This document shows positions 19,711 through 57,132 of a stretch of 64,000 nt of DNA, piece by piece; position 1 is the stretch's first letter; each line of letters begins with the position of its first letter. Made by a program: the position numbers and the translations under genes. Origin of the DNA: Calditrichota bacterium. Its GTDB lineage: Bacteria > Zhuqueibacterota > Zhuqueibacteria > Thermofontimicrobiales > Thermofontimicrobiaceae. The notes under the pieces were generated by a model. The model was not told the origin of the DNA. It saw nothing but the letters and a program-made list of their open reading frames with translations, and did not search any database. The stretch is from NCBI GenBank assembly GCA_013152715.1, contig JAADFU010000075.1, positions 1,804 to 65,803 of the forward strand. Direction: 5' to 3'.

Positions 19711-22700
19711 CTACAGCACAAATCGTACAAGAAAACCTGTCCCCTTTTTGTCCAACAACCTGATTTTGCCTTCGATCTGATCTGCCAGTTGACGGATTAA
19801 TGCCATGCCCAGCGAATCGCTCGTTTGAAAATCTATTTCCGGCGCCAGACCAACGCCGTCGTCCATGACTGTCAGTTCACAATGACCTTCCTTGATTTCT
19901 TTGAAAGCAATAAAAATCTTTCCTCGCCGATCATCGGGAAAAGCATATTTCATGGCGTTGGTAATTAACTCATTGAGCAGCAATCCCAGCGGCACCGCCT
20001 TTTCAATGTTCAGAAAAATCGGCTCCAGATCCATTTCCAGTTTCACACGGCGGCTGATGTCGTAATTGAAATAGACATGCCGCGCGATGGTGCTGATAAA
20101 TTCTTTGAAATCCACCTCGGAAAGACTTTTCGACTGATAAAGTTTCTGGTGCACCATTGCCATGGAATAGACGCGATTAATGCTGTCCTTGAACGCCTCA
20201 ATCGCTTCTTTGTCAGAAATGCGGCGCGACTGCAAGCCGAGCAGGCTGGTGACGACCATGAGATTATTTTTCACGCGATGGTGGATTTCTTTAATCAATG
20301 TCTCTTTTTCTCGTAAGTCTTTTTTGATTTGTTCTTCCGCGCGTTTTTTATCGGTGATGTCACGGATAAGGACCTGAATCGCAGGCTTATTTTCAAAAGT
20401 AACGGGAAAACCTCTGACTTCGACATCGATCACCGAACCGTCTAATCTCAAAAATTTCTCATCCATTACAGGAAAAGCCTTTCCGGTTTGCATCGCTTCA
20501 GCTATTCTCTTAACAACATCTCTGCGGAAATCAGGGTGAACAAACTCAATTGCAGGCTTTCCAATCAACTCACCAATTGTGGATGCACCTATTAGGTCAA
20601 CGCTTGCTTTATTGGCAAAAACAATTTTGCCTTCACAATGAATAACAATTGCGTCCGGCAAATCTTCTACCAGTTTGCGGTATTTTTCTTCGCTTTCCAT
20701 TAGCGCTTTCACGGCACGCTTACGTTCGGTAATGTCGCGCAGAATTCCCTGAGTGGCAACGCCTTCTTTGTACTTGATGTACGAGACAGAAGCTTCCAGG
20801 TCAATTTTTTCTCCATTTTTTGCAATGGCAGTAAATTCATATTTGGGGCTAAGTGGTTCGCCTGCGACAAAGCGCTTCATTCTTTCTTCCACAACGGGCC
20901 GGCTCTCGGGAGCCACCAGATCCATAAAATCAAAGTCAGGGCTATTCGCATCTTCCAGAGCCACGCCGAACATCTCAGTAAATTTGTCGTTAATCACTTC
21001 AAACTTTCGGTCGTGCAGCAAATAAATGGCATCGTTGGAGCCCTGAATCAAGTGACGATATTTTTCCTCGCTCTCTTTGAGCGCCTTTTCAGCGGCTTTT
21101 CTTTCCGTAACATCTCGCACGATCGCCTGAATGTGTTTCTTTCCTTTCAATTCGATCAAGGCAAGAGTAACTTCGGCATTGAAAACAGTCTTGTCGCATC
21201 TACAATGGAGCCATTCAAAAGAAGGCGATTTGCCTTTCAGCGCCAGGTTTATCTTTTCTAATGCTGCTTCTTTTGAGTTTCTTCCGTCTGCTTGTTCCGG
21301 CGGGGAGAAATCAGAAGGCGTTTTGCCAATAATCTGCTCGCGTGTGCAGCCAAAAATTTCCAGGGTTTTGCGGTTGCAATCAACGAAAACATTGTCTTTC
21401 ATCAGAAAAATAGCGTCATTCGCTTCTTCAAAAAGCAGCCGAAATTTATTCTCATTTTCCCGCAACTGTTGTCCAATCAAACGTTGTTCAGTGATGTCTT
21501 TCAAAATGTAAACAAAACCAATCAGCTTTCCTTCATCGTCTTTTACCGGATCAACAATAATTTCGTACCAGCGGTCCCCGAAAGTAATCTGTTTCGTTTC
21601 TCTTTGCTTCGATTTTTTCGCTTTTTTCAAAGGGCAATCTTTAGCTGTTTGATCAATTGAAAAAATTGTTTCAGCGACTGATTTGCCAATAATATCAGTG
21701 AACGTTCTGCCGGCGAGTTTTGCCAGGGATTTATTGCAGCGAATGATTTTCTCATCCAGAGCCAACAGAGCGATGGCATCGTTCATGGAATCAAAAGTAG
21801 AACGCCATTGGAAAGAAGCCTGACGCAATTTTTCTTCTGCTTGTTTCCTTGCGGAAATATCAATCGCAAATGCCACCACCACATCTCTGCCAAAATAGTT
21901 TCCCTTATTCAAGCGAACAATCTTCGGAAAAACCCGTCCATTTTTATCAAGGCCCCAAAACTCAAACTGCTGCGGCTCGCCTTGAAACGCTTTCTCGACA
22001 AAACCGGCAATCTTTGCCAGATCGTTTTTCCCCGGCGCAGACAGAAATTCCGGCGTTTTACCGATAAAATATTCCCGCGGATAGCCATACATTTTTTCAG
22101 CGCCATCGTTCACGTCAAGGAATCTTCCCTGCTCATCTTGAACATAAATGGCATCGGAAGCATTATTAAAGATACTGCGGTAGCTCAGTTCAGACTGCTC
22201 TAATGCTTTTCTTGTCAAAATGCGATCTGTAATATCTTCAATGACAACGGAAACGCCAATTTTTTCATCGCCTGCCGTGATAAACGAAGGAAGCAGCGAG
22301 ATAAAAATTTTCGTGCCATCCTGTCTTCTGATGCTCCATTCAGTACGCCGACTTTCTCCCTGAAAGAATTTTCTCACTTCGGTTGCTAATCTTGGTCTTT
22401 CAATTTTAACCAACCGCGCCAGATGAAAAAGATGCTTATGCAGAATCTCCTTTTCAGAAAATCCGATCATCTGCAAAAATTTTTGATTAACATCCTGAAT
22501 TATGCCAGCCATATTCAGGATTAAAATGCCCTCATTCGCAGCGCTGAAAAGCAGGCGGAATTTTTTCTCGCTTTCGTTCAAGGCCTGTTCCGTTTTTTTG
22601 CGATCTGTGATGTCAGTGGCAATATGAATAATTTTATCCAATCGTCCCTGGCTGTCGAACACTGGCGTGCAAGAAACCATGAACCAGGCATCGAGCGCTT

Positions 22701-23724
22701 CCATTTCCATTTCCACGGCTTCCATTCTGCCCGATTTTAGCAATTTTTCCAGGGGACAGCCTTCAGGCGGTTCAGCCGCATTTTCATGAAAAATTTCAAA
22801 ACAATATTTTCCGATAATCTCTTCCGTTGACATACCTGTCGCACGAAGAGCGGCATTGTTCACAGCGCTTACTCTGTGGTCCGGTTCCAGAATAATGGTG
22901 GGATGACCAATGGCGTGAAAAATGCTCTCCCAATCATGAATCGCTCGATTTAAATCATGTTCGCGCTTTATTTTTTCACTGATGTCCTGAAAAACAAACA
23001 CACACCTATCGTGTTTTTTTGTGCAAGGCGCTGCGCTGGCTGAAATGGGGATTTTTGTCCCGTCTTTGCGAATGAGCATTGGGCTTTGCACGAGGCTGAC
23101 GATGACGCCTTCTGTTAAAGCGCGAGAAACCGGCTCCGGCGCTGATTCTCCTGTCTTCTCATCAATGACCCGGAACACTTTCGCGTAATTTAGACGCAGC
23201 GCCTCCTCTCTTTTCCAGCCGGTCACTTTTTCTGCCGCCGCATTAAAAAAAACAATTTCGCCGCTCTTCTTCGCCACAATGACCGCTTCGCTGATCCCTT
23301 CCAATTTTGACTGTTGCCAATCGCTGCCTTTTTTGAGAGATTTTCTCACCTTCTGCAACTGAAGCATTGCTTCCAGTTGTGTTAAAAATGTTTTTTTCTC
23401 AAAAGGACGCACTGCGTAGCCGTCAGCGCCGCGCGATAGCCCCTGCGCTTGTTTTTTTGCTGAAATTCTTTTGTCAGCAACCAGCACTACCAAACTGCCT
23501 GCCAATCTGGCATCTGCTTTAATTCGCTGACAAATTTCCAGCGGATCAAGATCGGAGAGATTCATGTCCAGTAAGATTAAATAAGGCTGATTTTCTTTGG
23601 CGAGTTCCAAACATTTTCGTCCACTCTTCGCTGTGAGCACCTCGAACCCACCGGATTTGACCATGCCGGCTGTCGCCAGCAAAGCTTTAGCATCTTTGTC
23701 AGCAATGAGAATTTTCGGCGCCAT
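19711..23724 (-). CDS. hybrid signalling protein: N-terminal receiver (REC), eight PAS domains, HisKA_2/HATPase histidine kinase
   Basis: REC domain (KILIADKD...YLILLDMNLSDLDPLEI...). Eight PAS units, each closed by a D(I/V)(T/S)(D/E)RK-like junction (FQDISEKIK, ATDITDRKK, IEDITDRIL, AIDISARKQ, LKDITEQRL, VRDVTERKA, LRDITERKR, IRDITDKKR). H-box KEIHHRVKNNLMVVTSLL. ATPase boxes (LNELITNAMKYAF, DDGVGL, LGMALIRQL). ATG 23724 is preferred over the track's GTG at 23745. Confidence 0.88.
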   Translation of the reverse strand: MAPKILIADKDAKALLATAGMVKSGGFEVLTAKSGRKCLELAKENQPYLILLDMNLSDLDPLEICQRIKADARLAGSLVVLVADKRISAKKQAQGLSRGADGYAVRPFEKKTFLTQLEAMLQLQKVRKSLKKGSDWQQSKLEGISEAVIVAKKSGEIVFFNAAAEKVTGWKREEALRLNYAKVFRVIDEKTGESAPEPVSRALTEGVIVSLVQSPMLIRKDGTKIPISASAAPCTKKHDRCVFVFQDISEKIKREHDLNRAIHDWESIFHAIGHPTIILEPDHRVSAVNNAALRATGMSTEEIIGKYCFEIFHENAAEPPEGCPLEKLLKSGRMEAVEMEMEALDAWFMVSCTPVFDSQGRLDKIIHIATDITDRKKTEQALNESEKKFRLLFSAANEGILILNMAGIIQDVNQKFLQMIGFSEKEILHKHLFHLARLVKIERPRLATEVRKFFQGESRRTEWSIRRQDGTKIFISLLPSFITAGDEKIGVSVVIEDITDRILTRKALEQSELSYRSIFNNASDAIYVQDEQGRFLDVNDGAEKMYGYPREYFIGKTPEFLSAPGKNDLAKIAGFVEKAFQGEPQQFEFWGLDKNGRVFPKIVRLNKGNYFGRDVVVAFAIDISARKQAEEKLRQASFQWRSTFDSMNDAIALLALDEKIIRCNKSLAKLAGRTFTDIIGKSVAETIFSIDQTAKDCPLKKAKKSKQRETKQITFGDRWYEIIVDPVKDDEGKLIGFVYILKDITEQRLIGQQLRENENKFRLLFEEANDAIFLMKDNVFVDCNRKTLEIFGCTREQIIGKTPSDFSPPEQADGRNSKEAALEKINLALKGKSPSFEWLHCRCDKTVFNAEVTLALIELKGKKHIQAIVRDVTERKAAEKALKESEEKYRHLIQGSNDAIYLLHDRKFEVINDKFTEMFGVALEDANSPDFDFMDLVAPESRPVVEERMKRFVAGEPLSPKYEFTAIAKNGEKIDLEASVSYIKYKEGVATQGILRDITERKRAVKALMESEEKYRKLVEDLPDAIVIHCEGKIVFANKASVDLIGASTIGELIGKPAIEFVHPDFRRDVVKRIAEAMQTGKAFPVMDEKFLRLDGSVIDVEVRGFPVTFENKPAIQVLIRDITDKKRAEEQIKKDLREKETLIKEIHHRVKNNLMVVTSLLGLQSRRISDKEAIEAFKDSINRVYSMAMVHQKLYQSKSLSEVDFKEFISTIARHVYFNYDISRRVKLEMDLEPIFLNIEKAVPLGLLLNELITNAMKYAFPDDRRGKIFIAFKEIKEGHCELTVMDDGVGLAPEIDFQTSDSLGMALIRQLADQIEGKIRLLDKKGTGFLVRFVL

Positions 23725-23750
23725 TTTTATTCCCCAAAGGACCACTTACT

Positions 23751-24016: not shown

Positions 24017-25771
24017 TCAACTTCCCACCCTGATCATTTCCACGACATTGCCGTCTTCCTGTTTGCCGAACTTTCTCAATTCATTCTCAAAAATTTTCAC
24101 CGGGTATTTTTTCTCTGTCTCCGCACAAATTTTTGCAATGGCTTTTCGCATCAACTCGTTCTTGGTGTCGGTTTTCACCAAATCTTCCACATCGGAGAAT
24201 GACAGCGGCTGCGGCGGAATTCGTTCGATGAGTTGCAGTAAAAAATAATTCTCGTTCAGGAAAAATGGCGCCGTAACCTGTCCCAATTGCAAATTACCTA
24301 CTCGCGCCGCAATTTGCGGATGATCCGGCGCCGCCCAAAGTCCCAGGTCTCCTCCTTTTTCCGCCGTATTTTTGCGCAGCGAGTACTTTTTTGCCAGCGC
24401 GGCAAAATCTTCACCGGTTAAGATTTTCGCGTAGATTCGCTGCGCCAATGCCGAATCCGAGACCGCTATTTCGCGCAAGTGAAGCTTTTCCGGCGAAGAA
24501 TATTTTTCCCGATGGGATTGGTAATAATTTTGAAAATCCTGCGGCGAAGGCTGAATATTGTCCACAATGTCCGCTCTGACAAGTTTGGCAATCAAGCGGT
24601 TTTTTTGCTTGCGAATTTGTCGTCGGACTTCGGGAATTTGATCCACCTCGGCAGCCAGCGCCTCTTTCAGTAAAAATTCATTGCGCACCATTACCGCCAA
24701 TTTTTCAGCGATGTCCAGATGGGAAGTCAGATCAGGCCTGTCCTGCGGCAGCGATTCTGCTATTTTTTGAAAAAAAGTTTCCACGTCCCAACTGCCGCCG
24801 GCAAATTCGACAACCGTGTCGTGCAAATGATTTTCCACGTCTTTCTGCACCGACTGAATTTCTTCGTCCGTCAATACGGGAAATTTGTTCGGCAGCAGTG
24901 CGTCAGTCCGTTTTTTGATTTTTCGCGCCGCCCGCACGAGAAAATTCACCGCATCGGCTTTGACAATGACATGTTTGTCTTTCATCAGATTTTTGACATA
25001 TTCGTTCGCCAACGCCGTTTCTTTCCGTTCGCGAATGACGCGCGCGATGCGATGTTTTTGTGCTTGAAATTCACTCTCCGGTAAAATTGGCGAGACCACT
25101 TTGTCTTCGACTTTAATGATGTGAAAGCCCCAGCGGGTTTTCACTGGCTGGGAAATCTCGCCCACGCGCAGTCTGTACGCTGCGTTCTCAAAATTTTCGT
25201 CCATGTCGCCGAAAGAAAAATAGCCCAGATCGCCGCCATTTTTCGCCAGCGTCGTATCGCGGAAAAGATTGTGACTGAGCTGCTGAAACGAATAGCCTTT
25301 TTTCAGCAGAGACAACAGCGAATCCGCCTGCTGCTTTGTTTTCACAAATAAATGCCGGGCGCGGATTTTTGTTTTCGATTTGAGGTAACCATCGCGCAAT
25401 TCAGATTCGGAAATCATCACTTGATCCGCGACTTTTTGTCGGTAGAGTTCTTTGATGAGCGCATCTTTTTCAATGGCTTTCAATTGGTGGGAAATTCGCG
25501 GATCGCTGGCGTAGCCATTCTCCAGACCGTACAGCGCCAGCAGCCGATTCTCAATCATGCGCTGCAAAAATCTTTTTCTATCATCGTACGTTCTGGGTCG
25601 CGCGCCGGGCTTTGCCTGTAGCTCGAAATTTAGAATAAAATCTTCGCTACCAATGGTCTCGTCGCCCACGCGCGCCAAAATGCCGGAGTCGTTTTTTTTG
25701 CCGCAAAATGAGAACAGAACAACGAAAATGAGAAAGAAGATAAAATAATTTTGTCGGAATTTGTCTTTCAT
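24017..25771 (-). CDS. PpiC/parvulin-type peptidyl-prolyl isomerase, SurA/PpiD-like envelope chaperone (second paralogue)
   Basis: Lipoprotein-like leader (FVVLFSFCGKKN). Rotamase core RHLFVKTKQQADSLLSLLKKGYSFQQLS...GGDLGYFSFGDMDENFENAAYRLRVGEISQPVKTRWGFHIIKVEDK. Same architecture as 2565-4271. Confidence 0.8.
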   Translation of the reverse strand: MKDKFRQNYFIFFLIFVVLFSFCGKKNDSGILARVGDETIGSEDFILNFELQAKPGARPRTYDDRKRFLQRMIENRLLALYGLENGYASDPRISHQLKAIEKDALIKELYRQKVADQVMISESELRDGYLKSKTKIRARHLFVKTKQQADSLLSLLKKGYSFQQLSHNLFRDTTLAKNGGDLGYFSFGDMDENFENAAYRLRVGEISQPVKTRWGFHIIKVEDKVVSPILPESEFQAQKHRIARVIRERKETALANEYVKNLMKDKHVIVKADAVNFLVRAARKIKKRTDALLPNKFPVLTDEEIQSVQKDVENHLHDTVVEFAGGSWDVETFFQKIAESLPQDRPDLTSHLDIAEKLAVMVRNEFLLKEALAAEVDQIPEVRRQIRKQKNRLIAKLVRADIVDNIQPSPQDFQNYYQSHREKYSSPEKLHLREIAVSDSALAQRIYAKILTGEDFAALAKKYSLRKNTAEKGGDLGLWAAPDHPQIAARVGNLQLGQVTAPFFLNENYFLLQLIERIPPQPLSFSDVEDLVKTDTKNELMRKAIAKICAETEKKYPVKIFENELRKFGKQEDGNVVEMIRVGS

Positions 25772-25784
25772 TCACTGAGTTTAA

Positions 25785-26387
25785 TTATTTTTGGCTAAAA
25801 AACTGATCCAGTTCTTTGATTAATTCATACACACAAGCCTGCGCGCTGGCATTAATGCTTTTGACGATTTCCAGCGGCGCTTTTTTGTTCACCACCGTTT
25901 TTTTGTCGAAAGTTTTTTGCCAGAGCAACTTTCTGTTCGCATCCGAAAGGGCAAATGCCACTTTCACGCGCCCAAACCATTGTGCGCCCTCATCCACTTC
26001 TTCGATGGCTTCGATTTCACCGGACAAGCGATAATCTGATTTGTTATAATTGTAGCCATTTATCACTTGCTGAAACAAATTGGCAGCGCGCAACTGCTCG
26101 ACTAATTTATCGGTGAATAATTCCGCCGGAGAAGCGGCCCAGCGCTGGTAGTGATAACGTTTGCCTTCGTACAAATTCTCCCGATAAACAATGCGATCTC
26201 CGGCATAAAATGGTTTGGCAGTAAATTTTGTCACTTCGAGAGAAACATCGTATTTGGGCGTCGCGCTTGCCGAAGTTTGCTGGTTTTCAAACTCCATGAA
26301 ATAAAAATGGGTATCGGGCACACTGGCGCACTGCCAAAAAATCGTCAATGTCAATAATATCAAAAAATAAACGGAAAATTTCCTCAT
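25785..26387 (-). CDS. ABC-transport auxiliary lipoprotein (PqiC/YmbA-like, DUF330-type)
   Basis: ATG 26387 with GGAG upstream. Leader MRKFSVYFLILLTLTIFWQCAS. Family-like core DRIVYRENLYEGKRYHYQRWAASPAELFTDKLVEQLRAANLF. Located directly downstream of the MCE gene. Confidence 0.65.
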   Translation of the reverse strand: MRKFSVYFLILLTLTIFWQCASVPDTHFYFMEFENQQTSASATPKYDVSLEVTKFTAKPFYAGDRIVYRENLYEGKRYHYQRWAASPAELFTDKLVEQLRAANLFQQVINGYNYNKSDYRLSGEIEAIEEVDEGAQWFGRVKVAFALSDANRKLLWQKTFDKKTVVNKKAPLEIVKSINASAQACVYELIKELDQFFSQK

Positions 26388-26567
26388 TTGTGATTCTCCA
26401 ATCATGTTTATTTCATTTCTGTCGGACGCGTATCTTTTTAAAATGCTGACGCCTTAACTCATTGAAAAACCATTAATTAGACCGTGAGACTTTTACCCCC
26501 TTGTTTTGAACGAGTATTTTTTAAAAGCGGTCGCTTTACTTCCAAAGAAAAAGACCAGTTTGAAAAT

Positions 26568-27467
26568 CTACTTTTCAAACTCCCGCGGCGCCGGCGCAGA
26601 TTTTCGAATTAAACTCCAGGGTTTTTCTTTAATCAGTTTAGTGAACTCATCCAGATTCTGCGTGGTGCGGTTCAGATTTTCCATGATATCCTGATAATTC
26701 ACATTCTGCGACGATAGCATTCCATTGAACATGGTCAGTGTGGACTGGAATTCTTTGATTGCATTTTTCGACTCTTTCAGCGTTCCTTCCAGATGAGAAA
26801 TGGAAGTGGAAATTTCATCCTGATTGTCGCCGACCATTTTGTCCAATTTGCTGCTCATGCTGTGCAAATCCGCCAGCACCAAATTCATATTTTCCATCAT
26901 CGAGGAAACGGACTGCTGGTTTTGATCGAGCAGTTGATTGAAATTCGCCAGAATTTGGTGAAATTCCTGCTGATTATCCTGGCCCAGCAACTGGTTGATG
27001 CCGTCGATGGTCTCGGACAATTGATTGGTCAGTTTGTCCACATTTTCCGTGAGCATCATCAGCGGCGTGACTTCCTTGCAATTCAGCAAACTCCCCGGCT
27101 TTGCCCGTTTGGCGTCAGGGCTGCCAGTGGAAATTTCGATGTAATATTCCCCCATGATGCCAATGGAAGTGATGAAAACTCGGGAGTCTTGTTTCACCGG
27201 CACATCTGCATTAATCTCGATGAGAAATTCTATGTAGCTGTCGTCTTCCGGTGAGATACGCATTTCTTTGATTTTGCCGACTTCCATTCCGCCGTAACGC
27301 ACCAGCGAGCCAACCTCCAGACCGCTAGTGTATTTGAAGTGCGTCAAATAGGTGTTTGTTTTTTTCAACAAATCCATTCCCGAAACGACTATCAGGAAAA
27401 AAACCAACAGCAGAATGCTGAAAACGACAAAACAACCGGCCTTTACTTCATTCGCTTTGTATTCCAT
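26568..27467 (-). CDS. mlaD: MCE-domain (MlaD-family) protein with long C-terminal helical extension
   Basis: N-terminal TM helix (AGCFVVFSILLLVFFLIVV). MCE domain (GLEVGSLVRYGGMEVGKIKEMRISPEDDSYIEFLIEINADVPVKQDSRVFITSIGIMGEYYIEI). About 160 aa of Q/N/L-rich helical repeats follow. Confidence 0.85.
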   Translation of the reverse strand: MEYKANEVKAGCFVVFSILLLVFFLIVVSGMDLLKKTNTYLTHFKYTSGLEVGSLVRYGGMEVGKIKEMRISPEDDSYIEFLIEINADVPVKQDSRVFITSIGIMGEYYIEISTGSPDAKRAKPGSLLNCKEVTPLMMLTENVDKLTNQLSETIDGINQLLGQDNQQEFHQILANFNQLLDQNQQSVSSMMENMNLVLADLHSMSSKLDKMVGDNQDEISTSISHLEGTLKESKNAIKEFQSTLTMFNGMLSSQNVNYQDIMENLNRTTQNLDEFTKLIKEKPWSLIRKSAPAPREFEK

Positions 27468-27512
27468 GGTTCCCCGTGCAGTTGAAGTTCATTCAAAAAA
27501 AAATTATTTTAT

Positions 27513-28319
27513 TTATTCATCTGTCTCGCCAATGAGCGATTTGAGATAACTGTCTTTGTCAATTTTTTCCGGATCGGGAATACGCTGAAAAAACTGCTGC
27601 ACTTTGGGATTGTCAGAATTCTTCAGTTCATCCACAGTGCCCAACGCAATAATTTTTCCGTCGTCCAAAAGCGCCACGCGATCTGCGATCAGATACACTG
27701 ATTCCAGTTCATGCGTCACGATGACGATGGTCATGTGGAACGCTTTTTTTAATTTCAAAATTAAATTGTCAATACCCACCGCAACAATGGGATCCAGTCC
27801 GGCAGAAGGCTCGTCGCAAAAGAGGATGTCTGGATCCATGGCAATAGCGCGCGCCAATGCGGCGCGTTTTTTCATTCCCCCGGACAACTGCGACGGCAAA
27901 AAATCCTCAAAACCAGCCAGGCCGACTTGATCCAGTTTCATCCGCGTCATAATCTTGATGGTCGAATCTTCCAGTTCTGTGTGCTCGCGCAACGGCAGCG
28001 CCACATTGTCGCCCACAGACATGGAATTGAATAAAGCACCGCCTTGAAATAACATGCCGATTTTGCGGCGAATCGGCAGCATTTCTTCTTCGCTGAGTGC
28101 CGTAATATCCTGTCCCTTGATCCAAATTGTCCCGGCCGTGGGTTTGGAAAGGCCAATAATGTGCCGCAGCAGCGTGCTTTTTCCGCAGCCGGAACGCCCC
28201 AAAATTGTCACCGTCTCGCCCGGGAAAATTTGCAAATTAATGCCATCCAAAACCTTCCGCGATCCGTAGTAGGTAACCAGATCCTGTATGTCAATGATGG
28301 GTTGTTTTGAATTAGTCAT
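27513..28319 (-). CDS. mlaF: ABC transporter ATP-binding protein, MlaF-like
   Basis: Walker A GRSGCGKST, signature LSGGMKKR, Walker B ILFCDEPSAGLD, H-loop VTHE. Confidence 0.9.
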   Translation of the reverse strand: MTNSKQPIIDIQDLVTYYGSRKVLDGINLQIFPGETVTILGRSGCGKSTLLRHIIGLSKPTAGTIWIKGQDITALSEEEMLPIRRKIGMLFQGGALFNSMSVGDNVALPLREHTELEDSTIKIMTRMKLDQVGLAGFEDFLPSQLSGGMKKRAALARAIAMDPDILFCDEPSAGLDPIVAVGIDNLILKLKKAFHMTIVIVTHELESVYLIADRVALLDDGKIIALGTVDELKNSDNPKVQQFFQRIPDPEKIDKDSYLKSLIGETDE

Positions 28320-28416
28320 GATGGTCCTGATTAGTCAAGAGTATCATTTTTTTTTGCTGATTAGAACTACCAGTCAGATTGTTCTGTTTAACAATATTTT
28401 GTTATCGGGTCATCTG

Positions 28417-28578
28417 ACATCCCCCTAAATCCCCCTTCAAAGGGGGACTTCCTTGGATCTTCGCTTCAAAGTGGGACTTTCTTGAATCACCCCTTCAATT
28501 GGGAACTTCCTTTAATCTCCCCTTCAGAGGGGAACTTCTTTGACTCCCCCCTTTGAAGGGGGGAACAAGGGGGGATGT
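28417..28578. repeat. array of five tandem ~29-nt G/C hairpin units bracketed by an inverted repeat, in the mlaE-mlaF spacer
   Basis: CCCCC-ttcaaa-GGGGG (28431-28446); degenerate tcgc-ttcaaa-gtgg (28461-28474); CCC-ttcaatt-GGG (28491-28503); TCCCC-ttcaga-GGGGA (28518-28533); CCCCCC-tttgaa-GGGGGG (28546-28563, loop inverted). A conserved ACTTyCTT spacer follows units 1-4. The outer inverted repeat is ACATCCCCC (28417-28425) / GGGGGATGT (28570-28578). Confidence 0.85.
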
Positions 28579-28691
28579 TCAAATCAAAATCGAATTAGAA
28601 ACTAAAAATATCCAGAAAAGATTCGCTTCCCTTTAATCTAAAATAATTTCGTGCAAAAAAATCGTTACAGAAATATGATAATTTTTAAAAA

Positions 28692-29516
28692 CTACAACGT
28701 TGAATAAAAAATCATCGTCATTACCAGATCAGCGACAATAATGAGAAAAATCGACGTCACTACCGACGCTGTTGTAGATTTTCCCACGCCTTCGGCGCCG
28801 CCTTTGACGATGAAACCCTGATAGGCGCCAACTTGTGAGATAATGGTCGCGAAAAAGAAAGTCTTCACCAGTCCGGTGAGCAAATCTTTCATTACTAACG
28901 CATCCGCTGTCTGGTTGAAATAACGGATGAAAGAAATGTGCAAATTTACAATCGCCAGAAAAAAACCGCCGAGAATGCCCAGCACATCTGCCATCAGCGA
29001 CAAACAGGGCAGCACAATCAACAGCGCTAAAAATCTGGGAACCACTAAAAACCAGACCGGATTAAAGCCCATGGTGCGCAGCGCGTCGATTTCTTCGTTG
29101 ACTTTCATGGTGCCGATTTCCGCGGCGATAGCTGAGCCGCTCCGCCCGGCGACAATGATTGCCGTCAGCAAAGGTCCCAGTTCCCGGGTCATGGAAACGC
29201 CCACTAAATCCGCTGTATAAATGGACGCGCCAAATCGTTCCAATTGATACGCCGCCTGCATCGCCATAATCAAGCCTACGAAAAAGCAAATTGTCGCCAC
29301 GATGGGAATGGAATTGTAGCCGATGTAAATCATCTGCTGCACGGTGCTCTGCCAGCGGATGCCGCCTTTGCCGCGAAAAGGAGCCACAAATATCCAACGC
29401 AGGGCATCTCTGGTCAGTTTAACCATGCGCCCCACGTGGGCCATGTACATCAAAGATTGCCGTCCGATTGAGCCAAATGTTTGCGTAACAAAATGTTTCG
29501 TTTCTCTGTCTGACAT
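28692..29516 (-). CDS. mlaE: ABC transporter permease, MlaE-like
   Basis: A 274-aa polytopic membrane protein of typical MlaE size and hydrophobicity pattern (...IVATICFFVGLIMAMQAAYQLERFGASIYTADLVGVSMTRELGPLLTAIIVAGRSGSAIAAEIGTMKVNEEIDALRTMG...). In an operon with mlaF and mlaD. Confidence 0.88.
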   Translation of the reverse strand: MSDRETKHFVTQTFGSIGRQSLMYMAHVGRMVKLTRDALRWIFVAPFRGKGGIRWQSTVQQMIYIGYNSIPIVATICFFVGLIMAMQAAYQLERFGASIYTADLVGVSMTRELGPLLTAIIVAGRSGSAIAAEIGTMKVNEEIDALRTMGFNPVWFLVVPRFLALLIVLPCLSLMADVLGILGGFFLAIVNLHISFIRYFNQTADALVMKDLLTGLVKTFFFATIISQVGAYQGFIVKGGAEGVGKSTTASVVTSIFLIIVADLVMTMIFYSTL

Positions 29517-29858
29517 TTACTCCTCACTGACGGCTGTCATCGCCTGGCTTTCATCTTCGCAAATATCAAAAACTTTGTCCAGACGGCTGAGTTCAAAAAC
29601 GTCCCGAATTGCCGGTTTCAAATTAAAAAGTTTGAGTTTCCCGTGTCGTTTGTTCATGAGTTGCAGCGCTTCCACCAGCGTCGCGACGCCGGAACTGTCC
29701 ATGTAGGAAACGCCGTCCAGATCGACAAGAAGATTTTCAATTTTCTTTTTCATCAAAGCTAATATTTTCTTGCGCACCTGAGGAGAAGAATAAAGATCAA
29801 CATCTCCCGCGATTTTCAAAATTGCCACATTCTTCTTTTCAAAAACTTCCAGTTCCAC
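29517..29858 (-). CDS. STAS-domain protein (anti-sigma-factor-antagonist type; candidate MlaB equivalent)
   Basis: A 113-aa protein with the SpoIIAA/RsbV-like layout VAILKIAGDVDLYSSPQVRKKI...LLVDLDGVSYMDSSGVATLVEAL, including the phosphorylatable DSSG serine context. Its TAA stop directly abuts the mlaE ATG. Confidence 0.85.
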   Translation of the reverse strand: MELEVFEKKNVAILKIAGDVDLYSSPQVRKKILALMKKKIENLLVDLDGVSYMDSSGVATLVEALQLMNKRHGKLKLFNLKPAIRDVFELSRLDKVFDICEDESQAMTAVSEE

Positions 29859-29870
29859 AAACTTCCCCTT

Positions 29871-30308
29871 CTATTTCTCTTCAATATATTTGACTAATTT
29901 CACCTGATTTCCCTGTTCGAACTGATTGTCATATTCCACTTCATCCATCACCGCATTGATGAAATGGACGCCCAGTCCTCCTGGTCTGATTTCATCCAAT
30001 TTTCTCGGTTTGATTTTTTTAATATCAATTTTCTTGCCAAAATCGCGCAATCGGATTTCGATCTTCCCCTGGCAAATCAAAATCGTCGCCCGAATCGGCT
30101 CATCACTGGGACCGCCGTAAGTGTGTTTGATGATATTGCTGCACGCCTCGTCCACCGCCAAAATCACGTTGTGCAAATCATCCAGACAAATGCCGCTAAT
30201 TTCACAGATGCTCCCCACTGCCGCGCGAATTATTTTCAGAAACTGCGGCTTGGCAGGAATCCGGATTTCAATCGTTTCCACTTTTTCACTCGTCTGCTGT
30301 TGGGTCAT
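29871..30308 (-). CDS. RsbW/SpoIIAB-like serine kinase (HATPase_c anti-sigma regulatory factor type)
   Basis: A 145-aa protein with N-box DEACSNIIKHTYGG and G-box RPGGLGVHFINAVMDEVEY. Its start overlaps the stop of the upstream phosphatase by 4 nt (ATGA). Confidence 0.8.
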   Translation of the reverse strand: MTQQQTSEKVETIEIRIPAKPQFLKIIRAAVGSICEISGICLDDLHNVILAVDEACSNIIKHTYGGPSDEPIRATILICQGKIEIRLRDFGKKIDIKKIKPRKLDEIRPGGLGVHFINAVMDEVEYDNQFEQGNQVKLVKYIEEK

Positions 30309-31585
30309 TGCAACCTCAAAGCTAACAGTGTAATATCATCGTGCTGATTGACTTTCCCCTGAAATTTCTTGATATCGTCGATAATCCGTTCGATAAAATC
30401 TTGCGGACTCGGAATCGGAGCGCGAATCCCGTCGATAAGTTTGTCCAGCGTGTACATTTTATTCATGGCATCGTGGGCTTCAATGACGCCGTCGGTGTAG
30501 AGCAAAATTGTGTCTCCCGGCCGCAAGTTCACTACTTCATTATCGTAATTTGCGTTCGCCAGAATTCCCAGTGGGATGCCGGAATCATTCTCAATGCGTT
30601 CTATTCGCTTTTCTTTTTCCCGCCACCACAGCGGAGGCAAGTGGCCCGCATTAGAGATGGTCAGTTTTCCGGCTCTCGCGTCCAATACCATGGAAACGAG
30701 CGAAACAAACATGCCCCGTTGGCTTCTCTTCAACAACGCTTTGTTCAAAAATTCCATCATATTTGCCGGCGATTCTGCGAGATGACAGTAATAACGAAAA
30801 TCGCTGATCAACCGCGCCATGAATAACGCCGCCGGAATCCCTTTCCCGGAAACATCGCCGATCACAATCGCCAGCTTGTCTTCGTCCAAAAGCACAAAAT
30901 CGAACAAATCGCCGCCCACAGCAGTCGCCGGAATATTTTTACCATAAATTAAAAATCGTTCCTGATCGCCCTTCGGGAACGACTGCGGCATAAAACTTTG
31001 CTGAATGCGGTGAGCGGACTCCAATTGCTGTCGCAAACGCTGCTGTTCCAGCACGTAATGGTGCATGCGCGCGTTTTCGATCGCCAGCGCCACCTGACGA
31101 CAAAAAGTCTCAAAAATTTCCAGATTTTCTTTGGTGAACGGATGCGCATCGAGACGATTGATCACTTCTGCCACGCCGATCACTTTGTTTTTCACTTTCA
31201 GCGGCGCCGCCAGAATCGACCGCGTCTCAAAACCAGTATTTTGATCAATCTCCGAAAAAAAACGGCTATCGCTGGAAACGTCGGGAACGATGATCGACTC
31301 GCCTGTTTGGGCGACCCAGCCGGCAATGCCCTGCCCTATTTTCAATTGAATTTTATTTTTTACTTTATCCTGAACCTTGCCCAGAGCAATTTGACATTCC
31401 AACAAACCAGTGTCTTCGTTGAGCAACATGATCGAGCTTGCCTCAGCGTGCATCACCTCTTGCGCTTTTTCCATGACCAGCGCCATGAGCTCATCCAGGT
31501 CAAGTGTGGATGTGATAATTGAAGTGACGTCGATTAAACTGGTGAGGTCTTTTATTTTTTGCCGAAGCTGTCCAAGTTCGTTCAT
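30305..31585 (-). CDS. GAF-domain PP2C (SpoIIE/RsbU-type) serine phosphatase
   Basis: N-terminal GAF domain (DLDELMALVMEKAQEVMHAEASSIMLLNEDTGLLECQIALG...GIAGWVAQTGESIIVPDV). C-terminal SpoIIE/PP2C motifs (GGDLFDFVLL, VIGDVSGKGIPAALFMARL, LLYTDGVIEA, DDITLLALR). Confidence 0.88.
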   Translation of the reverse strand: MNELGQLRQKIKDLTSLIDVTSIITSTLDLDELMALVMEKAQEVMHAEASSIMLLNEDTGLLECQIALGKVQDKVKNKIQLKIGQGIAGWVAQTGESIIVPDVSSDSRFFSEIDQNTGFETRSILAAPLKVKNKVIGVAEVINRLDAHPFTKENLEIFETFCRQVALAIENARMHHYVLEQQRLRQQLESAHRIQQSFMPQSFPKGDQERFLIYGKNIPATAVGGDLFDFVLLDEDKLAIVIGDVSGKGIPAALFMARLISDFRYYCHLAESPANMMEFLNKALLKRSQRGMFVSLVSMVLDARAGKLTISNAGHLPPLWWREKEKRIERIENDSGIPLGILANANYDNEVVNLRPGDTILLYTDGVIEAHDAMNKMYTLDKLIDGIRAPIPSPQDFIERIIDDIKKFQGKVNQHDDITLLALRLQ

Positions 31586-31752
31586 TTTTGTTACCTTGCA
31601 AGTTGAAATTCAAGTAAGAACAAAGAAGCAAATCATATAAAGATATAATAAAAGGATAATAAAAGCAAGCATAAAATTAAAGTAACTTTTTTTTAACAAT
31701 TGGCGATTTTTGTCCAAAGCCGGATTTTTTCAATGATAGCCCAAATAGGCAG

Positions 31753-31890
31753 GTTGTTACTTCAATGCAATGGGACGGTAAAAACGAAGCAGGGGATCAA
31801 ATGAGCAGCGGAATTTACTTTTTTAAAATCGCGGCACGCAGCAAACATGTTCGCTTTGAAAAAATCATCAAGGAAATTTTGATGAAATAA
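31753..31890 (+). pseudogene. relic of a T9SS C-terminal sorting domain (last ~45 codons of a deleted cargo gene)
   Basis: My translation is VVTSMQWDGKNEAGDQMSSGIYFFKIAARSKHVRFEKIIKEILMK*. This matches the terminal strands of the sorting domains of the intact cargos in this window (compare EWDGTDQFGRKVVSGVYFYQLKINNFQEVKRMILTK at 57196). The open frame begins only at 31681, there is no signal peptide or body, and the divergent phosphatase gene starts at 31585. Confidence 0.6.
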
Positions 31891-31932
31891 TTTTTCGGGG
31901 GAGGTTGGTGCCTTCGTGGTGAAATTTTATCT

Positions 31933-31970
31933 CAAAAAAAAAACCGCAATCGAAATGCTTCGACAACGGT
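31933..31970 (-). terminator. intrinsic terminator downstream of rplS
   Basis: The minus strand reads AACCG-ttg-TCGAA-gcat-TTCGA-ttg-CGGTT (a bipartite stem) followed by a run of about 10 T. It begins 34 nt after the rplS stop. Confidence 0.6.
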
Positions 31971-32003
31971 TCTATTTTGATAAAATTTTTACGGGAAAAC
32001 GAA

Positions 32004-34111: not shown

Positions 34112-34828
34112 TTATTCCGAAGCTGATTCTTGTTTTTTCTCTTCGCTATCAGCAGTTTCTTCGGCAGCCGGCTCCGCTGCTTCAGCGGCTGGTTCTTCTG
34201 CCGCCTCCTCAACAGGTGCAGTTTCCGCCGCAGCTTCAACCTCAGCTACCTCTATCGTCGGCTCGGTTTCTGCTGCTTCTGCCGCCTGTTCAATTTCAGC
34301 AGTTTCAGTTGTCGGTTCAGTTTCTTCAGCTTCCGCCGCCTGTTCGGTTTCAACAACTTCAGTTGCTGGCTCAATTTCTTCAGCTTCTGCCGCTTGTTCA
34401 GTTTCTCCAGCTTCTGCCGCTACCGCTTCCTCTTCTTCAGCGGCTTTCGCTTCTTCTTTGTCTCTTTTCTTTTGCGCCTCAATCGCTTCCAGACGTTTTT
34501 GTCGTTCTAATTGTAAAACTTCCCACTTTTTCACTTCTTCTTCAATTTTCTTCTCATCTGCACCCTGTTTCATCAAAGACCATTTCATCCAGATGCCGTG
34601 TTCGCTCAGCAAATTTTTCACCGTATCCGTGGGGATGGCGCCATTTTTCAGCCAATAAAAAACCTTTTCCTCATCAATCAGCACTTCAGCCGGATTGGTC
34701 AAAGGATTGTAATGACCGATCTTTTCAATGTATTTTCCGTCGCGTTTAGCACGCGAATCGATAGCGACGATTCTATAAAAAGGCTGTTTCTTTTTTCCTC
34801 GTCGTGTCAATCGTAATTTTACTGCCAA
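34112..34828 (-). CDS. rpsP: 30S ribosomal protein S16 with ~150-aa charged, repeat-containing C-terminal extension
   Basis: S16 core [43 protein letters not shown] place the start at TTG 34828, 8 nt after GAGGAGG. This gives the canonical (M)AVKLRL N-terminus and removes the overlap with ffh that the track's 34870 start implies. Confidence 0.9.
34232..34420 (-). repeat. in-frame 54-nt (18-aa) tandem repeats inside the S16 tail
   Basis: Three to four units of [18 protein letters not shown] / [18 protein letters not shown] / [18 protein letters not shown]. At the DNA level the unit starts recur at 34286, 34340 and 34394. Confidence 0.7.
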
Positions 34829-34859
34829 TTCTTTTACCTCCTCACGTTCAAATTTTTCA

Positions 34860-36176
34860 CTAAAAACCAATCGGCAAACCCTTGAAGCCGATCTTGTTAA
34901 TATTTTTCATCATTTTTTGCATCATTTTAAATTGCTTCAGCAATTGATTCACATCCTGAATACTGGTACCGCTGCCCCTGAAAATTCTTTTTCGCCGGCT
35001 GCCGTCGATGATGTGCGGTCGCTGTCTTTCGTCCGGAGTCATGGAATTGATGATCGCCTCAATTTTCACCAAAGCGCGGTCATCGACATCGAGGCCTTTC
35101 ATCATTTTTCCCTGCGCCCCGGGCAACATGCCGATCAACTGACTCAGCGGGCCCATCTTTTTTATCTGCTGCAATTGATCGTAAAAATCCTGCAACGTAA
35201 ATTGCTGCCGGCGAAGTTTTTTCTCTAATTTCGCCGCCTGCTCTCGGTCAACTGCATCCTGGGCTTTTTCCACCAGAGTAACGACATCGCCCATGCCCAA
35301 AATCCGCGACGCCATCCGTTCCGGATGAAACGTCTCCAACGCAGCAAATTTCTCGCCCGTGGAAATAAGTTTAATGGGCTTATTCGTCACCATGCGCATG
35401 GAAAGAGCAGCGCCGCCACGAGCATCGCCGTCCATTTTCGTCAACACAATCCCGTCGAAATCGAGCCAATTTTGAAATTCCTTGGCGGTATTCACCGCAT
35501 CCTGGCCCGTCATGCCGTCGGCGACGAACAGAATCTCTGTCGGATTCGTTTTTTTCTTTATCTCCAACAGTTCGTTCATCATAGCGTCGTCGATGTGCAG
35601 CCGCCCGGCAGTGTCAAAAATTGCCACGTCGTGGCTGTGTTTGCGGCAAAAGTCCACCGCGGACAAACAAATTTCCACGGCTGATTTTTTGCTGTCAGAG
35701 ATAACCGGCGCTTCGATCTTTTCGCCGACAATCTCCAACTGGCGCACCGCCGCCGGCCGATAAATATCAGCGGCGACCAAAACCGGCTTGCGACCTTTTT
35801 TTCTCAAAAATAAACCCAACTTTCCGGCGAGCGTGGTTTTTCCTGATCCCTGCAAACCGGAAAGCATGATGATCGACGGAATCTGTCCGGAAATTTTCAA
35901 AGGAACGTCAGATTTCCCCATCAAGTTTACCAACTCGTCGTGAATAATTTTCACGATTTGCTGCCCCGGGGTAATGCTTTTCAGCACCTTCTGGCCTAAC
36001 GCTCGCTCTTGCACCGCGGCGATAAATGTCTTGGCAACTTTGTAATTGACATCCGCTTCGAGCAAAACGCGACGCACTTCTTTGAGGGCATCACTGACGT
36101 TCTTTTCGGACAATTTACCATGACCGCGAAGTTTCTTGAATACGCTTTCTAATTTTTCCGTCAAATCCTGAAACAT
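34860..36176 (-). CDS. ffh: signal recognition particle protein Ffh
   Basis: N and G domains with [20 protein letters not shown] and [10 protein letters not shown]. Methionine-rich M domain (MMKGL..., MMQKMMKNI). Confidence 0.97.
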
Positions 36177-55745: not shown

Positions 55746-55844
55746 CGTAACGAAAGAAAATTTTAATTGAACTTTTGCAAAAGAATTTGACAAATGAACA
55801 TAAACAAAAAACTGATCACCGAAAAGAGAAATGAGAGGAGAAAT

Positions 55845-56787: not shown

Positions 56788-57132
56788 ATGGCAGAACAGC
56801 ATAAAATCGTGCTTCGTCGTGTCGGCGAAAAAAGTGACATCATCAAAATCCAGTTCACTGCAACGGTGCCGACGGATATTGCAGACAGTTATTTAGCGGC
56901 TGCTTTTGGCAAGTGCTTCAAGAATAAATTTTACAAAATCATTCTTGACATGAAACACATTGACGAACCCAATTACCGTTTCATCGCCACTGTCATCGAA
57001 GCCACGACAAAAGTTCGTTCACGAAATGGAGACGTCAAGCTGATTAATGTATCTGATGCGGCAAATCACACGATTAATTCCTTCAATGCCTACACTTATT
57101 TGACAATCGACGAAAAGAAAAAGAATAAATGA
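56788..57132 (+). CDS. hypothetical protein, possibly STAS-fold (weak)
   Basis: A 114-aa protein with a beta-alpha pattern (DIIKIQFTATVPTDIADSYLAAAF...KIILDMKHIDEPNYRFIATVIEA...GDVKLINVSDAANHTI) reminiscent of STAS, but without a DSSG serine. Confidence 0.4.
   Translation: MAEQHKIVLRRVGEKSDIIKIQFTATVPTDIADSYLAAAFGKCFKNKFYKIILDMKHIDEPNYRFIATVIEATTKVRSRNGDVKLINVSDAANHTINSFNAYTYLTIDEKKKNK

Follow-up and report, generated by a model that had tools for sequence, protein, structure and literature searches.

What does a partner-switching trio of phosphatase, kinase and STAS protein control when the gene directly following it encodes the permease of a lipid transporter? This question is raised by a locus in the window (the whole 64 kb stretch of DNA analysed here, from an uncultured sediment-type bacterium of the KSB1/FCB group), for which a sequence-only reading had proposed a sigma-less module coupled to an Mla-type ABC transporter. 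Its ORF coordinates and domain calls all hold when checked by ORF calls and Pfam profiles (Table 1), and both gene junctions that it described are real by sequence: the phosphatase TGA and the kinase ATG overlap in an ATGA (ttgcaATGAcc), and the mlaE ATG lies immediately 3' of the STAS TAA, the junction reading gagTAAATGtca. In the gap that precedes the phosphatase gene, a T-run lies just past the rplS stop and sigma-70-like matches are weak only. We consider it reasonably probable, if far from certain, that the locus forms one functional unit with two layers, namely an Mpc-like transporter with a STAS subunit and a sigma-less partner-switching input that would toggle this subunit. The locus is a real, conserved and apparently undescribed variant, and its module likely has an MCE lipid transporter of the Mpc/Mla type as output.

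Table 1. Features of the locus, with their coordinates in the window
Feature	Coordinates	Strand	Basis or remark
GAF-PP2C (SpoIIE-family) serine phosphatase, 426 aa	30305..31585	-	Pfam SpoIIE 4.7e-53, residues 234-425; GAF 1.7e-21, residues 29-169
RsbW/SpoIIAB-type GHKL serine kinase, 145 aa	29871..30308	-	Pfam HATPase_c_2 9.4e-24
STAS protein, 113 aa, GTG start, putative phospho-acceptor Ser55	29517..29858	-	Pfam STAS 1.3e-22
MlaE-family ABC permease, 274 aa	28692..29516	-	Pfam MlaE 1.8e-80; TIGR00056 259.5 bits vs cut-off 212
MlaF-type ABC ATPase, 268 aa, C-terminal extension	27513..28319	-	Pfam ABC_tran 5.7e-35
Elongated single-MCE protein (MlaD/MpcD-like), 299 aa	26568..27467	-	Pfam MlaD 1e-15, residues 37-115; TIGR00996 Mce family 1.3e-21
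PqiC/MpcA-like ABC-transport auxiliary lipoprotein, 206 aa	25785..26405	-	PF03886 (ABC_trans_aux) 2.9e-10
PpiC-type double-rotamase chaperone, 584 aa	24017..25771	-	Pfam Rotamase x2; co-oriented, peripheral
Tandem G/C hairpin array within the mlaE-mlaF spacer	28428..28562		TRF score 144
Intergenic rplS-phosphatase region, likely operon promoter (inferred)	31586..32003	-	418-nt gap

Is the adjacency of these genes meaningful in the first place? Eighty genomes picked by MlaE similarity only yielded 79 testable loci (KSB1-like and Acidobacteriota), and the STAS gene lies directly 5' of mlaE in every one of them (79/79), with a STAS-mlaE spacing between -4 and +4 nt in the window's own locus and in 7 of 11 relatives with annotation. 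A kinase gene stands beside the STAS gene in 14 of the 79 and a phosphatase gene in 11 (L007, L010 and L012 have the kinase without an adjacent phosphatase), and both kinase and PP2C are absent within 8 kb in 62 STAS-mlaE loci. Since the STAS gene is kept in these 62 loci, it belongs to the transporter; the kinase and phosphatase come on top of the STAS-transporter unit as an added layer. When the kinase served as the anchor, covering two divergent branches at 50-59% identity to their respective queries, seven look-ups out of seven gave the order PP2C, kinase, STAS, MlaEFD and lipoprotein between unrelated flanks, and all four STAS-anchored look-ups agree with this block, again with differing flanks. 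The suggestion that the trio stays welded to mlaE in relatives is thus borne out, and the kinase is dedicated to the transporter block, all sampled kinases of both branches being Mla-linked.

Could the genes nonetheless be neighbours by chance, or travel as a hitch-hiking mobile cassette, their adjacency being functionally meaningless? Operon composition does vary, the PpiC and PP2C genes being variably present, and small insertions occur between mlaE and mlaF, namely the hairpin array in the window and a DUF2442 gene in L093. Yet gene order is kept at 46-87% MlaE identity, in two phylum-level groups, amid unrelated flanks and with frequent overlaps, and conservation across two phylum-level groups excludes chance adjacency, so that this explanation is effectively refuted. 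The PpiC gene lies downstream in L001, L005, L007, L008, L014 and L086 and is absent from the other loci; linkage of the chaperone is confined to close KSB1-like relatives.

The hairpin array occupies part of a 372-nt spacer between mlaE and mlaF (28320-28691) and comprises 4.7 copies of a G/C unit of about 29 nt; the motif CCCCYTTSAARGGGG occurs five times in it, where 0.35 would be expected, and is absent from the rest of the window. No such array is present in the mlaE-mlaF spacers of the relatives examined, and it is a genome-specific REP-like insert. Because this hairpin-bearing spacer, which the sequence-only reading had passed over, parts mlaE from mlaF, tight coupling of the module to the transporter is shown only for the STAS-mlaE link; a single transcript joining mlaF-D to the regulators is a candidate only, which counts against the two-layer unit favoured here.

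The transporter itself, as the sequence-only reading had likewise not noted, is of the Mla-Pqi chimeric (Mpc-like) type and not of the E. coli Mla type, since its MlaD is long and its lipoprotein PqiC-like. After an N-terminal TM segment, its MCE protein has the MCE domain and then a long, helical C-terminal part with coiled-coil-type matches at 136-280, and a lipoprotein gene lies 3' of MlaD in nearly every locus reaching that far. The closest PDB matches of MlaF are P. aeruginosa MlaF (4e-64) and E. coli MlaF (8.6e-59). Its C-terminus (DSY258LKSL262I263GETDE) retains a Y-x3-L-[LI] motif, in which Y258, L262 and I263 align with E. coli Y261, L265 and L266, the residues that occupy the MlaB-MlaF groove (PMC7367683); conservation of the tail Tyr and Leu across 75 loci is 90% or higher. 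Retention of this docking motif supports a tie between the STAS protein and the transporter, as does, in the manner of a Rosetta stone, Brucella abortus MpcE, a MlaE homologue with an N-terminal STAS fusion (PMC12436622). In Veillonella, MlaF bears a C-terminal extension though there is no MlaB, an observation that counts against the favoured two-layer unit.

What kind of STAS protein is it? Its motif YMDS55SGVATLVEAL has the phosphorylatable-serine context of SpoIIAA/RsbV that had been read from the sequence, Ser55 aligning with the phospho-Ser of these proteins and with Thr52 of E. coli MlaB. A score of 91.5 bits against TIGR00377 (cut-off 53) places it in the anti-sigma-antagonist superfamily of NCBIfam; its sequence matches are TM1442, RsbV and SpoIIAA (1e-13 to 1e-10), and P. 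aeruginosa MlaB follows at E = 0.14. The AF2 model (pLDDT 90) presents a complete, SpoIIAA-like STAS fold of five strands and four helices, beta5/alpha4 being extra relative to MlaB, with Ser55 capping the N-terminus of helix alpha2, and its top fold matches are kinase-bound SpoIIAA and RsbV (TM 0.91). By sequence and modelled fold, the protein is a canonical SpoIIAA/RsbV-type antagonist. Membership of the MlaB family is rejected, given 21 bits against mlaB_1 (NF033618; cut-off 90), the SpoIIAA-like fold and the position of E. coli MlaB at rank 49 among structural matches to the model (TM 0.61), so that of the proposed MlaB equivalence there survives at most a functional one.

Does the kinase then act on a sigma factor after all? 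In a conventional partner switch, it would act as anti-sigma factor on a sigma factor, or on another regulator, encoded elsewhere in the genome, the STAS protein would be its antagonist, and the mla genes co-transcribed or co-regulated cargo, e.g. of an envelope-stress regulon. The affinities of the STAS protein and kinase to RsbV/RsbW and SpoIIAA/SpoIIAB in sequence and fold, including the NCBIfam score just given, speak for it; the closest PDB match of the kinase is B. subtilis RsbW (3.2e-15), and its match to NCBIfam RsbW (7e-27) falls under the equivalog cut-off. Moreover, the view is limited to 64 kb of the genome, and a sigma factor or second STAS target could be elsewhere. Within the window, as had been claimed, no sigma factor was found, either among the ORFs, of which the unclear ones were profiled and the remaining housekeeping genes judged by eye, or when three E. 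coli sigma factors were compared with all stop-to-stop ORFs. Nor does a sigma-70-family gene occur in any of the approximately 25 kinase-bearing loci probed, or a sigma gene in Pfam-annotated relatives, and the only two sigma matches in 1.39 Mb both fall in kinase-less loci. These results, the attachment of the STAS gene to mlaE where kinase and PP2C are missing, its fusion to MlaE in Brucella and the Mla linkage of the sampled kinases of both branches argue against the conventional arrangement, which we regard as unlikely. The three genes form a sigma-less partner-switching set tied to an MCE/Mla-type transporter and, because what is conserved downstream of them is an ABC transporter and no sigma factor, the STAS protein rather than the kinase is likely the output.

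Whether the STAS protein would be phosphorylated is a separate matter. Kinases of the RsbW/SpoIIAB family phosphorylate their STAS partners on this very Ser, as established for SpoIIAB and RsbW. All ATP-binding motifs are retained in the kinase (N, G1 and G2 boxes, kept in 19 copies) and all metal ligands in the phosphatase (GGD226, D243, D365-G and D416-D417, kept in 18 Mla-linked copies). DSSG is found in 18 of 18 kinase-linked STAS proteins and DSAG in most kinase-less ones, a split that, at the level of sequence, suggests co-adaptation around the site. All this weighs against a constitutive structural STAS subunit, with the kinase and phosphatase acting on MlaF, MlaE or another protein, or with the kinase merely sequestering the STAS protein without catalysis. 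That alternative, which strikes us as quite improbable, draws on the loci with a kinase and no adjacent phosphatase and on the Asp-Ser motif, which is also kept where no kinase is nearby, suggesting a structural role, so that its conservation is no proof of phosphorylation. In E. coli MlaB, for which no kinase is known, Thr52 is central in the MlaF interface and T52E lowers MlaF pull-down, but T52A is also non-functional (PMC7367683); residue 52 of MlaB therefore has roles beyond phosphorylation.

How might the favoured two-layer unit operate? The first layer would be an envelope lipid ABC transporter made up of the MlaE permease, MlaF ATPase, MCE needle and PqiC-like outer-membrane lipoprotein, with the STAS protein as its putative cytoplasmic accessory subunit, functionally equivalent to MlaB in E. 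coli and to the STAS domain in Brucella MpcE. In the second layer, the RsbW-like kinase would phosphorylate Ser55, and the GAF-PP2C, proposed from its domains to be the sensor or input, would strip the phosphate from the STAS protein upon ligand sensing by its GAF domain; the sensor part varies among loci (GAF or FHA+GAF), whereas the wiring on the output side does not change. If E. coli is a guide, STAS protein without the phosphate may dock on MlaF, at its helical subdomain, and aid the stability and ATPase activity of MlaF, turning transport on, and the phosphorylated or kinase-held form would be released from MlaF, turning it off. The switching partner would thus be the STAS protein, not the kinase, moving between kinase and ATPase. 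The STAS protein is always carried by the transporter's relatives, and envelope lipid trafficking in the host is therefore probably turned on and off by phosphorylation.

As in E. coli MlaFEDB (Thong 2016, PMC5016091; Kolich 2020, PMC7367683), a small STAS protein is encoded in a MlaE/MlaF/MCE operon, an Asp precedes the Ser/Thr of the alpha2 N-cap (T52, S55 here), and MlaF carries a C-terminal motif, Y-x3-L-L in E. coli. However, mlaB comes last in its operon, whereas the STAS gene here is first; the present cluster has no MlaC or MlaA, its long MlaD and PqiC-like lipoprotein set it apart, its STAS protein has a full SpoIIAA-type fold outside the MlaB family, and it encodes a dedicated kinase and phosphatase, neither of which is known for MlaB. 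Brucella abortus MpcEFDA (PMC12436622) shares the order STAS-E-F-D-lipoprotein, an MCE needle of about 300 aa and the lack of MlaC/MlaA, but its STAS domain is fused to the permease instead of being encoded by a separate abutting gene, and the paper describes no kinase or phosphatase. That MlaB is phospho-regulated had already been proposed as a hypothesis (Kolich et al. 2020, PMC7367683), to which no enzyme is known to have been linked, and the claim that the wiring is uncharacterised holds to the extent that the literature searched contained no case of partner switching with an MCE-family lipid ABC transporter as effector. The Bacillus RsbU/RsbP-RsbV-RsbW-sigmaB and SpoIIE-SpoIIAA-SpoIIAB-sigmaF systems comprise the same three protein families, including the motifs for catalysis and for the acceptor site, and RsbV/RsbW in 6M36 and SpoIIAA/SpoIIAB in 1TH8 are the nearest matches here in sequence and fold; by contrast, neither the operon, the window nor the related kinase-bearing loci yielded a sigma factor, and it is an ABC transporter that is conserved downstream. 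Partner switches without a sigma factor and with a STAS output include Pseudomonas HsbR-HsbA, Bordetella BtrU/V/W and Chlamydia Rsb. Others of this kind are V. fischeri SypE-SypA (PMC10120452) and Anabaena HenR/Alr3423-All4160 (bioRxiv 10.64898/2026.04.08.717354). In such sigma-less systems, an RsbW-like kinase phosphorylates the STAS protein, a PP2C reverses this, and the effector is a non-sigma one, often concerned with the envelope or exopolysaccharide; what would set the present case apart from these systems is its effector, a lipid ABC transporter of the MCE family.

The eight genes of the operon lie in series on the minus strand. Every gene coordinate and the gene order put forward by the sequence-only reading were reproduced in the ORF list, and Pfam confirmed its domain calls for the phosphatase, kinase, STAS protein, MlaE, MlaF, MCE protein, lipoprotein and PpiC protein, with matches far exceeding the cut-offs for all eight. 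The two tight junctions that it had described were likewise seen in the sequence: the stop codon of the phosphatase gene overlaps the start codon of the kinase gene in an ATGA, and the ATG of mlaE comes straight after the TAA of the STAS gene.

Genes of the partner-switching/lipid transporter operon
Feature	Position	Strand	Description
SpoIIE-family (PP2C) phosphatase with GAF	30305-31585	-	426 aa; Pfam GAF + SpoIIE
RsbW/SpoIIAB-type kinase	29871-30308	-	145 aa; Pfam HATPase_c_2 9.4e-24
STAS protein	29517-29858	-	113 aa, GTG start; Pfam STAS
MlaE permease	28692-29516	-	Pfam MlaE
MlaF ATPase	27513-28319	-	Pfam ABC_tran
MCE protein (MlaD)	26568-27467	-	299 aa; Pfam MlaD
PqiC-like lipoprotein	25785-26405	-	Pfam ABC_trans_aux (PF03886)
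PpiC protein	24017-25771	-	two rotamase domains (Pfam)

Elsewhere, PorV and Por_Secre_tail genes are present in the window; with the names borne by homologues (candidate division KSB1, Zhuqueibacterota, Calditrichota), they assign it to an uncultured bacterium of the FCB group. The window also encodes two large paralogous double-rotamase proteins of the PpiC type (2565-4274 and 24017-25771, both on the minus strand); linkage of the latter to the mla block is limited to close KSB1-like relatives. Just downstream of the operon lie genes for two HisKA_2/HWE-type histidine kinases (19711-23745, minus strand; 18258-19640, plus strand), one of which is 1344 aa long and combines a receiver domain with some eight PAS domains, whereas the other has a Tll0287-like domain with a CxxCH motif. 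Ribosomal protein S16 (34112-34870, minus strand) is lengthened at its C-terminus by about 130 aa, a very acidic stretch that consists of E/A/T-rich repeats (TEQAAEAEE and similar).

To which of its neighbours does the STAS protein primarily belong? One genome per species was scanned with the window MlaE only, which yielded 80 loci (46-87% identity) and makes the sample blind to STAS, and the six-frame ORFs of these loci were then searched with the window proteins. In 79 loci the gene next upstream of mlaE, in the same orientation, encodes a STAS protein; the 80th locus starts inside mlaE. The order STAS-MlaE-MlaF-MlaD-lipoprotein is universal in this MlaE-selected sample, which is drawn from KSB1-like genomes and from many Acidobacteriota (Terriglobia, Acidiferrales, Thermoanaerobaculia). 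The phosphatase/kinase/STAS trio that the sequence-only reading had placed beside mlaE is conserved in relatives as well, with the kinase directly upstream of STAS in 14 of the loci and the phosphatase joining it in 11 of these 14. The block lacks both enzymes in 65 loci; when both strands were searched again with profiles, 62 of these showed neither a kinase nor a PP2C within 8 kb, and the remaining three have a convergent stand-alone PP2C. Since STAS accompanies mlaE in 79 loci, mostly without a kinase, it belongs first of all with the transporter, and kinase plus phosphatase are an additional layer upon the STAS-transporter unit. The three stand-alone enzymes, of the SpoIIE type and 267-285 aa long, follow right after the lipoprotein gene in Terriglobia loci without an adjacent kinase (L023, 11537-12340; L045, 11535-12392; L064, 11441-12298), and the STAS proteins there read DSSG as in kinase-linked loci.

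Searches anchored on the other components lead to the same block. Four kinase homologues taken from long contigs (50-59% identity) all lie in the series GAF-SpoIIE/HATPase_c_2/STAS/MlaE/ABC/MlaD/ABC_trans_aux, embedded in unrelated flanks (DHH/LacI; Por_Secre_tail/LacI; polA-HEPN/Uma2; Pkinase/sigma-54 activator), and a distant Acidobacteriota-type kinase, used as a second query, returned the same block in three of three loci, here with a phosphatase of FHA+GAF+SpoIIE composition. Four STAS-anchored loci agree with this order, and of 11 annotated relatives 7 keep STAS and mlaE within -4 to +4 nt of each other. Complete MAGs, too, carry the block (CP070762.1 and OY843751.1). At least two phylum-level lineages share the design. 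Their sensor modules differ (GAF versus FHA+GAF) and the output wiring stays the same, which is what one would expect of a signalling input to a fixed effector. One long-read MAG (L091, 5688-8543) has its phosphatase and MlaE genes each split into two ORFs, with MlaD not annotated; the splits are probably assembly frameshifts and not real pseudogenes.

Partner-switching kinases usually share an operon with a cognate sigma factor. None was found in the 64-kb window, in line with what had been read from the sequence, when unclear ORFs were profiled, housekeeping genes were inspected by eye and all ORFs were compared with three E. coli sigma factors. Nor did the three E. coli probes, run with phmmer, or the annotated relatives reveal a sigma-70-family gene in any kinase-bearing related locus; throughout 1.39 Mb of loci there were only two sigma-70-family matches, each lying on the opposite strand of a locus without the kinase, although, because this probe set is small, divergent ECF sigma factors may escape it in loci without Pfam annotation. 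The main rival explanation, in which a sigma factor from another part of the genome is a further, or the actual, target of the kinase, appears improbable to us. A further signalling context is seen in several KSB1-like loci, where genes for Hanks-type Ser/Thr kinases (Pkinase-PEGA) and FHA/FG-GAP proteins stand upstream of the module in divergent orientation (L010, 1544-6863; L088, 2626-5184; L094, 1-3835), and in the Acidobacteriota branch, where the FHA domain is part of the phosphatase itself (L017, L020, L090, L092). Both arrangements hint at cross-talk with pThr signalling.

The proteins have the make-up of a partner-switching set, comprising a single-domain STAS antagonist, a serine kinase of the GHKL type in which the N, G1 and G2 boxes are present, and a sensory PP2C. 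The N-box (E54, N58, H62), G1 (D89-x-G91) and G2 (GGLG) residues are invariant or nearly so in 19 kinase copies, and the metal-binding aspartates of the PP2C are conserved in 18 copies. The best match of the kinase is B. subtilis RsbW (6M36_A, 3.2e-15); it scores 93.8 against an equivalog cut-off of 145 and falls under the cut-offs of both RsbW and SpoIIAB, and is therefore an orthologue of neither. Residues D54-S55 of the STAS protein align to SpoIIAA and RsbV, and an Asp-Ser acceptor is found in all STAS copies compared, with a single Asp-Thr exception. The notion that conservation of the phospho-serine tracks the presence of the kinase was rejected, because Asp-Ser is near-universal and only the next residue differs, DSSG occurring in 18 of 18 kinase-linked STAS proteins and DSAG in most kinase-less ones; this S/A difference may be a mere clade signature. 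A 114-aa ORF of the window (56788-57132, plus strand), situated just after a UbiA prenyltransferase gene (55794-56759), gave a sub-threshold STAS match (18 bits, cut-off 22.6) and has no Asp-Ser acceptor motif.

Is this STAS protein an MlaB? The sequence-only reading had called it the MlaB equivalent, and here family and context part ways. It scores 21 bits against NF033618, the NCBIfam model for E. coli-type MlaB (cut-off 90), and 91.5 bits, above the cut-off, against the anti-sigma-antagonist superfamily TIGR00377. A PDB search with it retrieved TM1442, RsbV and SpoIIAA at 1e-13 to 1e-10 and P. aeruginosa MlaB at E = 0.14, with no match to E. coli MlaB. Its model (pLDDT 90) has the fold beta1-beta2-alpha1-beta3-alpha2-beta4-alpha3-beta5-alpha4, in which Ser55 caps alpha2 at the start of helix 55-70, beta5 spans 98-100 and alpha4 103-111; MlaB lacks beta5 and alpha4, having a minimal STAS fold of four strands and three helices (Kolich et al. 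2020, PMC7367683). Foldseek placed kinase-bound SpoIIAA and RsbV first (TM 0.91) and E. coli MlaB at rank 49 (TMq 0.61). Membership of the MlaB family is thus ruled out by the NF033618 score, the full fold and the Foldseek rank, but the operon context with MlaE, MlaF and an MCE protein stands, the STAS gene abutting mlaE in the window and sharing its operon in 79 of 79 loci; the claim that the STAS protein would work like MlaB rests on this context.

A contact with MlaF can be approached from both partners. MlaB of the E. coli type contacts the MlaF helical subdomain and, with it, the C-terminal extension of the adjacent MlaF. In MlaB, Thr52 sits at the centre of the MlaF interface, and T52E weakens binding (PMC7367683); this residue aligns with Ser55 of the window STAS protein. 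When the E. coli operon sequence was aligned with the window proteins and 75 loci, the MlaF tail GDY261HADL265L266 of E. coli fell opposite DSY258LKSL262I263 of the window, so that the Y-x3-L-[LI] motif of the tail is kept, with the Tyr and first Leu at least 90% conserved across the 75 loci; in a phmmer search of the PDB with the tail alone, the alignment stops at residue 250. Both alignments are supportive, not decisive, for a putative STAS-MlaF contact; Veillonella, which has no MlaB, has a shorter C-terminal MlaF extension too (phylogenomic Mla survey). The non-redundant STAS-MlaF pairs, about 44 from three clades, carry too little signal for covariation/DCA.

The mlaE-mlaF spacer of the window measures 372 nt (28320-28691) and encloses an array of 4.7 tandem copies of a 29-nt unit (28428-28562), each unit folding as a G/C hairpin (CCCCYTTSAARGGGG). 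The motif has no occurrence elsewhere in the window and none in the relatives' spacers, and the array looks like a REP-like insert. As a conserved regulatory element it was rejected, because the relatives' spacers are unrelated. The junction is shorter than 90 nt in most loci and seems to be an insertion hot spot in this clade. Among related loci, it holds a DUF2442 gene in L093 (7509-7793), another, different inverted repeat in L007 (8804-9003), and unrelated spacers of 300-530 nt in L085 (8591-8895) and L086 (8722-9253).

In the mechanism that we propose, the kinase would phosphorylate the STAS protein on Ser55 and the GAF-PP2C would reverse this on sensing a ligand. STAS without phosphate would dock on MlaF and support its ATPase, and phospho-STAS, or STAS bound by the kinase, would do neither; we infer this direction of the effect because E. 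coli T52E weakens binding. We lean towards this mechanism as a whole, that is, kinase/PP2C-controlled docking of STAS on MlaF. The wider proposition is that an MCE lipid transporter spanning the envelope is gated by a reversible phospho-switch: a ligand-sensing PP2C (GAF or FHA+GAF) would control whether a canonical SpoIIAA-type STAS pairs with the RsbW-like kinase or with the MlaF ATPase, in a design found in two or more phylum-level lineages. It might as readily prove false as true.

MCE systems (Mla, Mpc, Mce) matter for outer-membrane integrity and virulence, and, to our knowledge, the regulation of phospholipid traffic between the two membranes of bacteria is largely unknown. Were the mechanism true, an MlaB-like subunit would for the first time have a natural kinase and phosphatase of its own, and bacterial intermembrane lipid transport its first signalling input at the post-translational level. 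If confirmed, it would carry partner switching beyond transcription, with an ABC transporter under its direct control, offer a mechanistic handle on MCE systems, and show MCE transporters to be equipped with STAS accessory subunits far more widely, and with another subtype, than MlaB-HMM surveys detected. Genomes with the block offer a ready-made test system, since they encode kinase, sensor phosphatase and STAS together with the transporter.

The wiring had been thought uncharacterised, and full-text searches indeed turned up no paper in which Mla, MCE or ABC transporters are brought together with partner switching, RsbW or PP2C; Mla is absent from a review of STAS-only proteins. In the phylogenomic Mla survey, MlaB was sought by the NF033618 HMM plus synteny to other mla genes and was reported as sparsely distributed; given the 21 bits of the window STAS, we infer that such a survey would miss this subtype. 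The idea that MlaB is phospho-regulated was put forward in 2020, with no kinase named (PMC7367683), and sigma-less partner switching with a STAS output is known for other effectors, the latest being a glycosyltransferase in Anabaena (bioRxiv 10.64898/2026.04.08.717354). The module is conserved and testable, and not categorically new.

On the transporter side, MlaE scores above the TIGR00056 cut-off, and among solved structures MlaF is matched best by its P. aeruginosa, A. baumannii and E. coli namesakes; both are clear family members. The transporter as a whole is not of the E. coli type, given the long MCE protein (MCE domain 37-115, then a helical region), the PqiC-like lipoprotein, and no MlaC or MlaA domains seen among the window ORFs profiled. 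The cluster instead unites MlaE, MlaF, an elongated single-MCE protein and a PqiC-like lipoprotein, the gene set of the Mla-Pqi chimeric system MpcEFDA of Brucella abortus, in which the N-terminus of the MlaE protein MpcE bears a STAS domain, described as MlaB-homologous, and MpcF, an elongated MpcD and a PqiC-like MpcA follow (PMC12436622). No STAS-MlaE fusion occurs among the closest 150 STAS representatives, only tandem or multi-STAS proteins having been seen instead, so the Rosetta-stone evidence rests on the Brucella paper (PMC12436622). Together with the linkage of STAS to mlaE, that fusion is the strongest argument that the STAS protein may be a transporter subunit. The window has the same gene series as Brucella in the same order, but here STAS has an ORF to itself, which ends in a stop codon of its own right before mlaE and is not fused to the permease; the STAS/MlaE pair is a split version of the Brucella STAS-permease arrangement.
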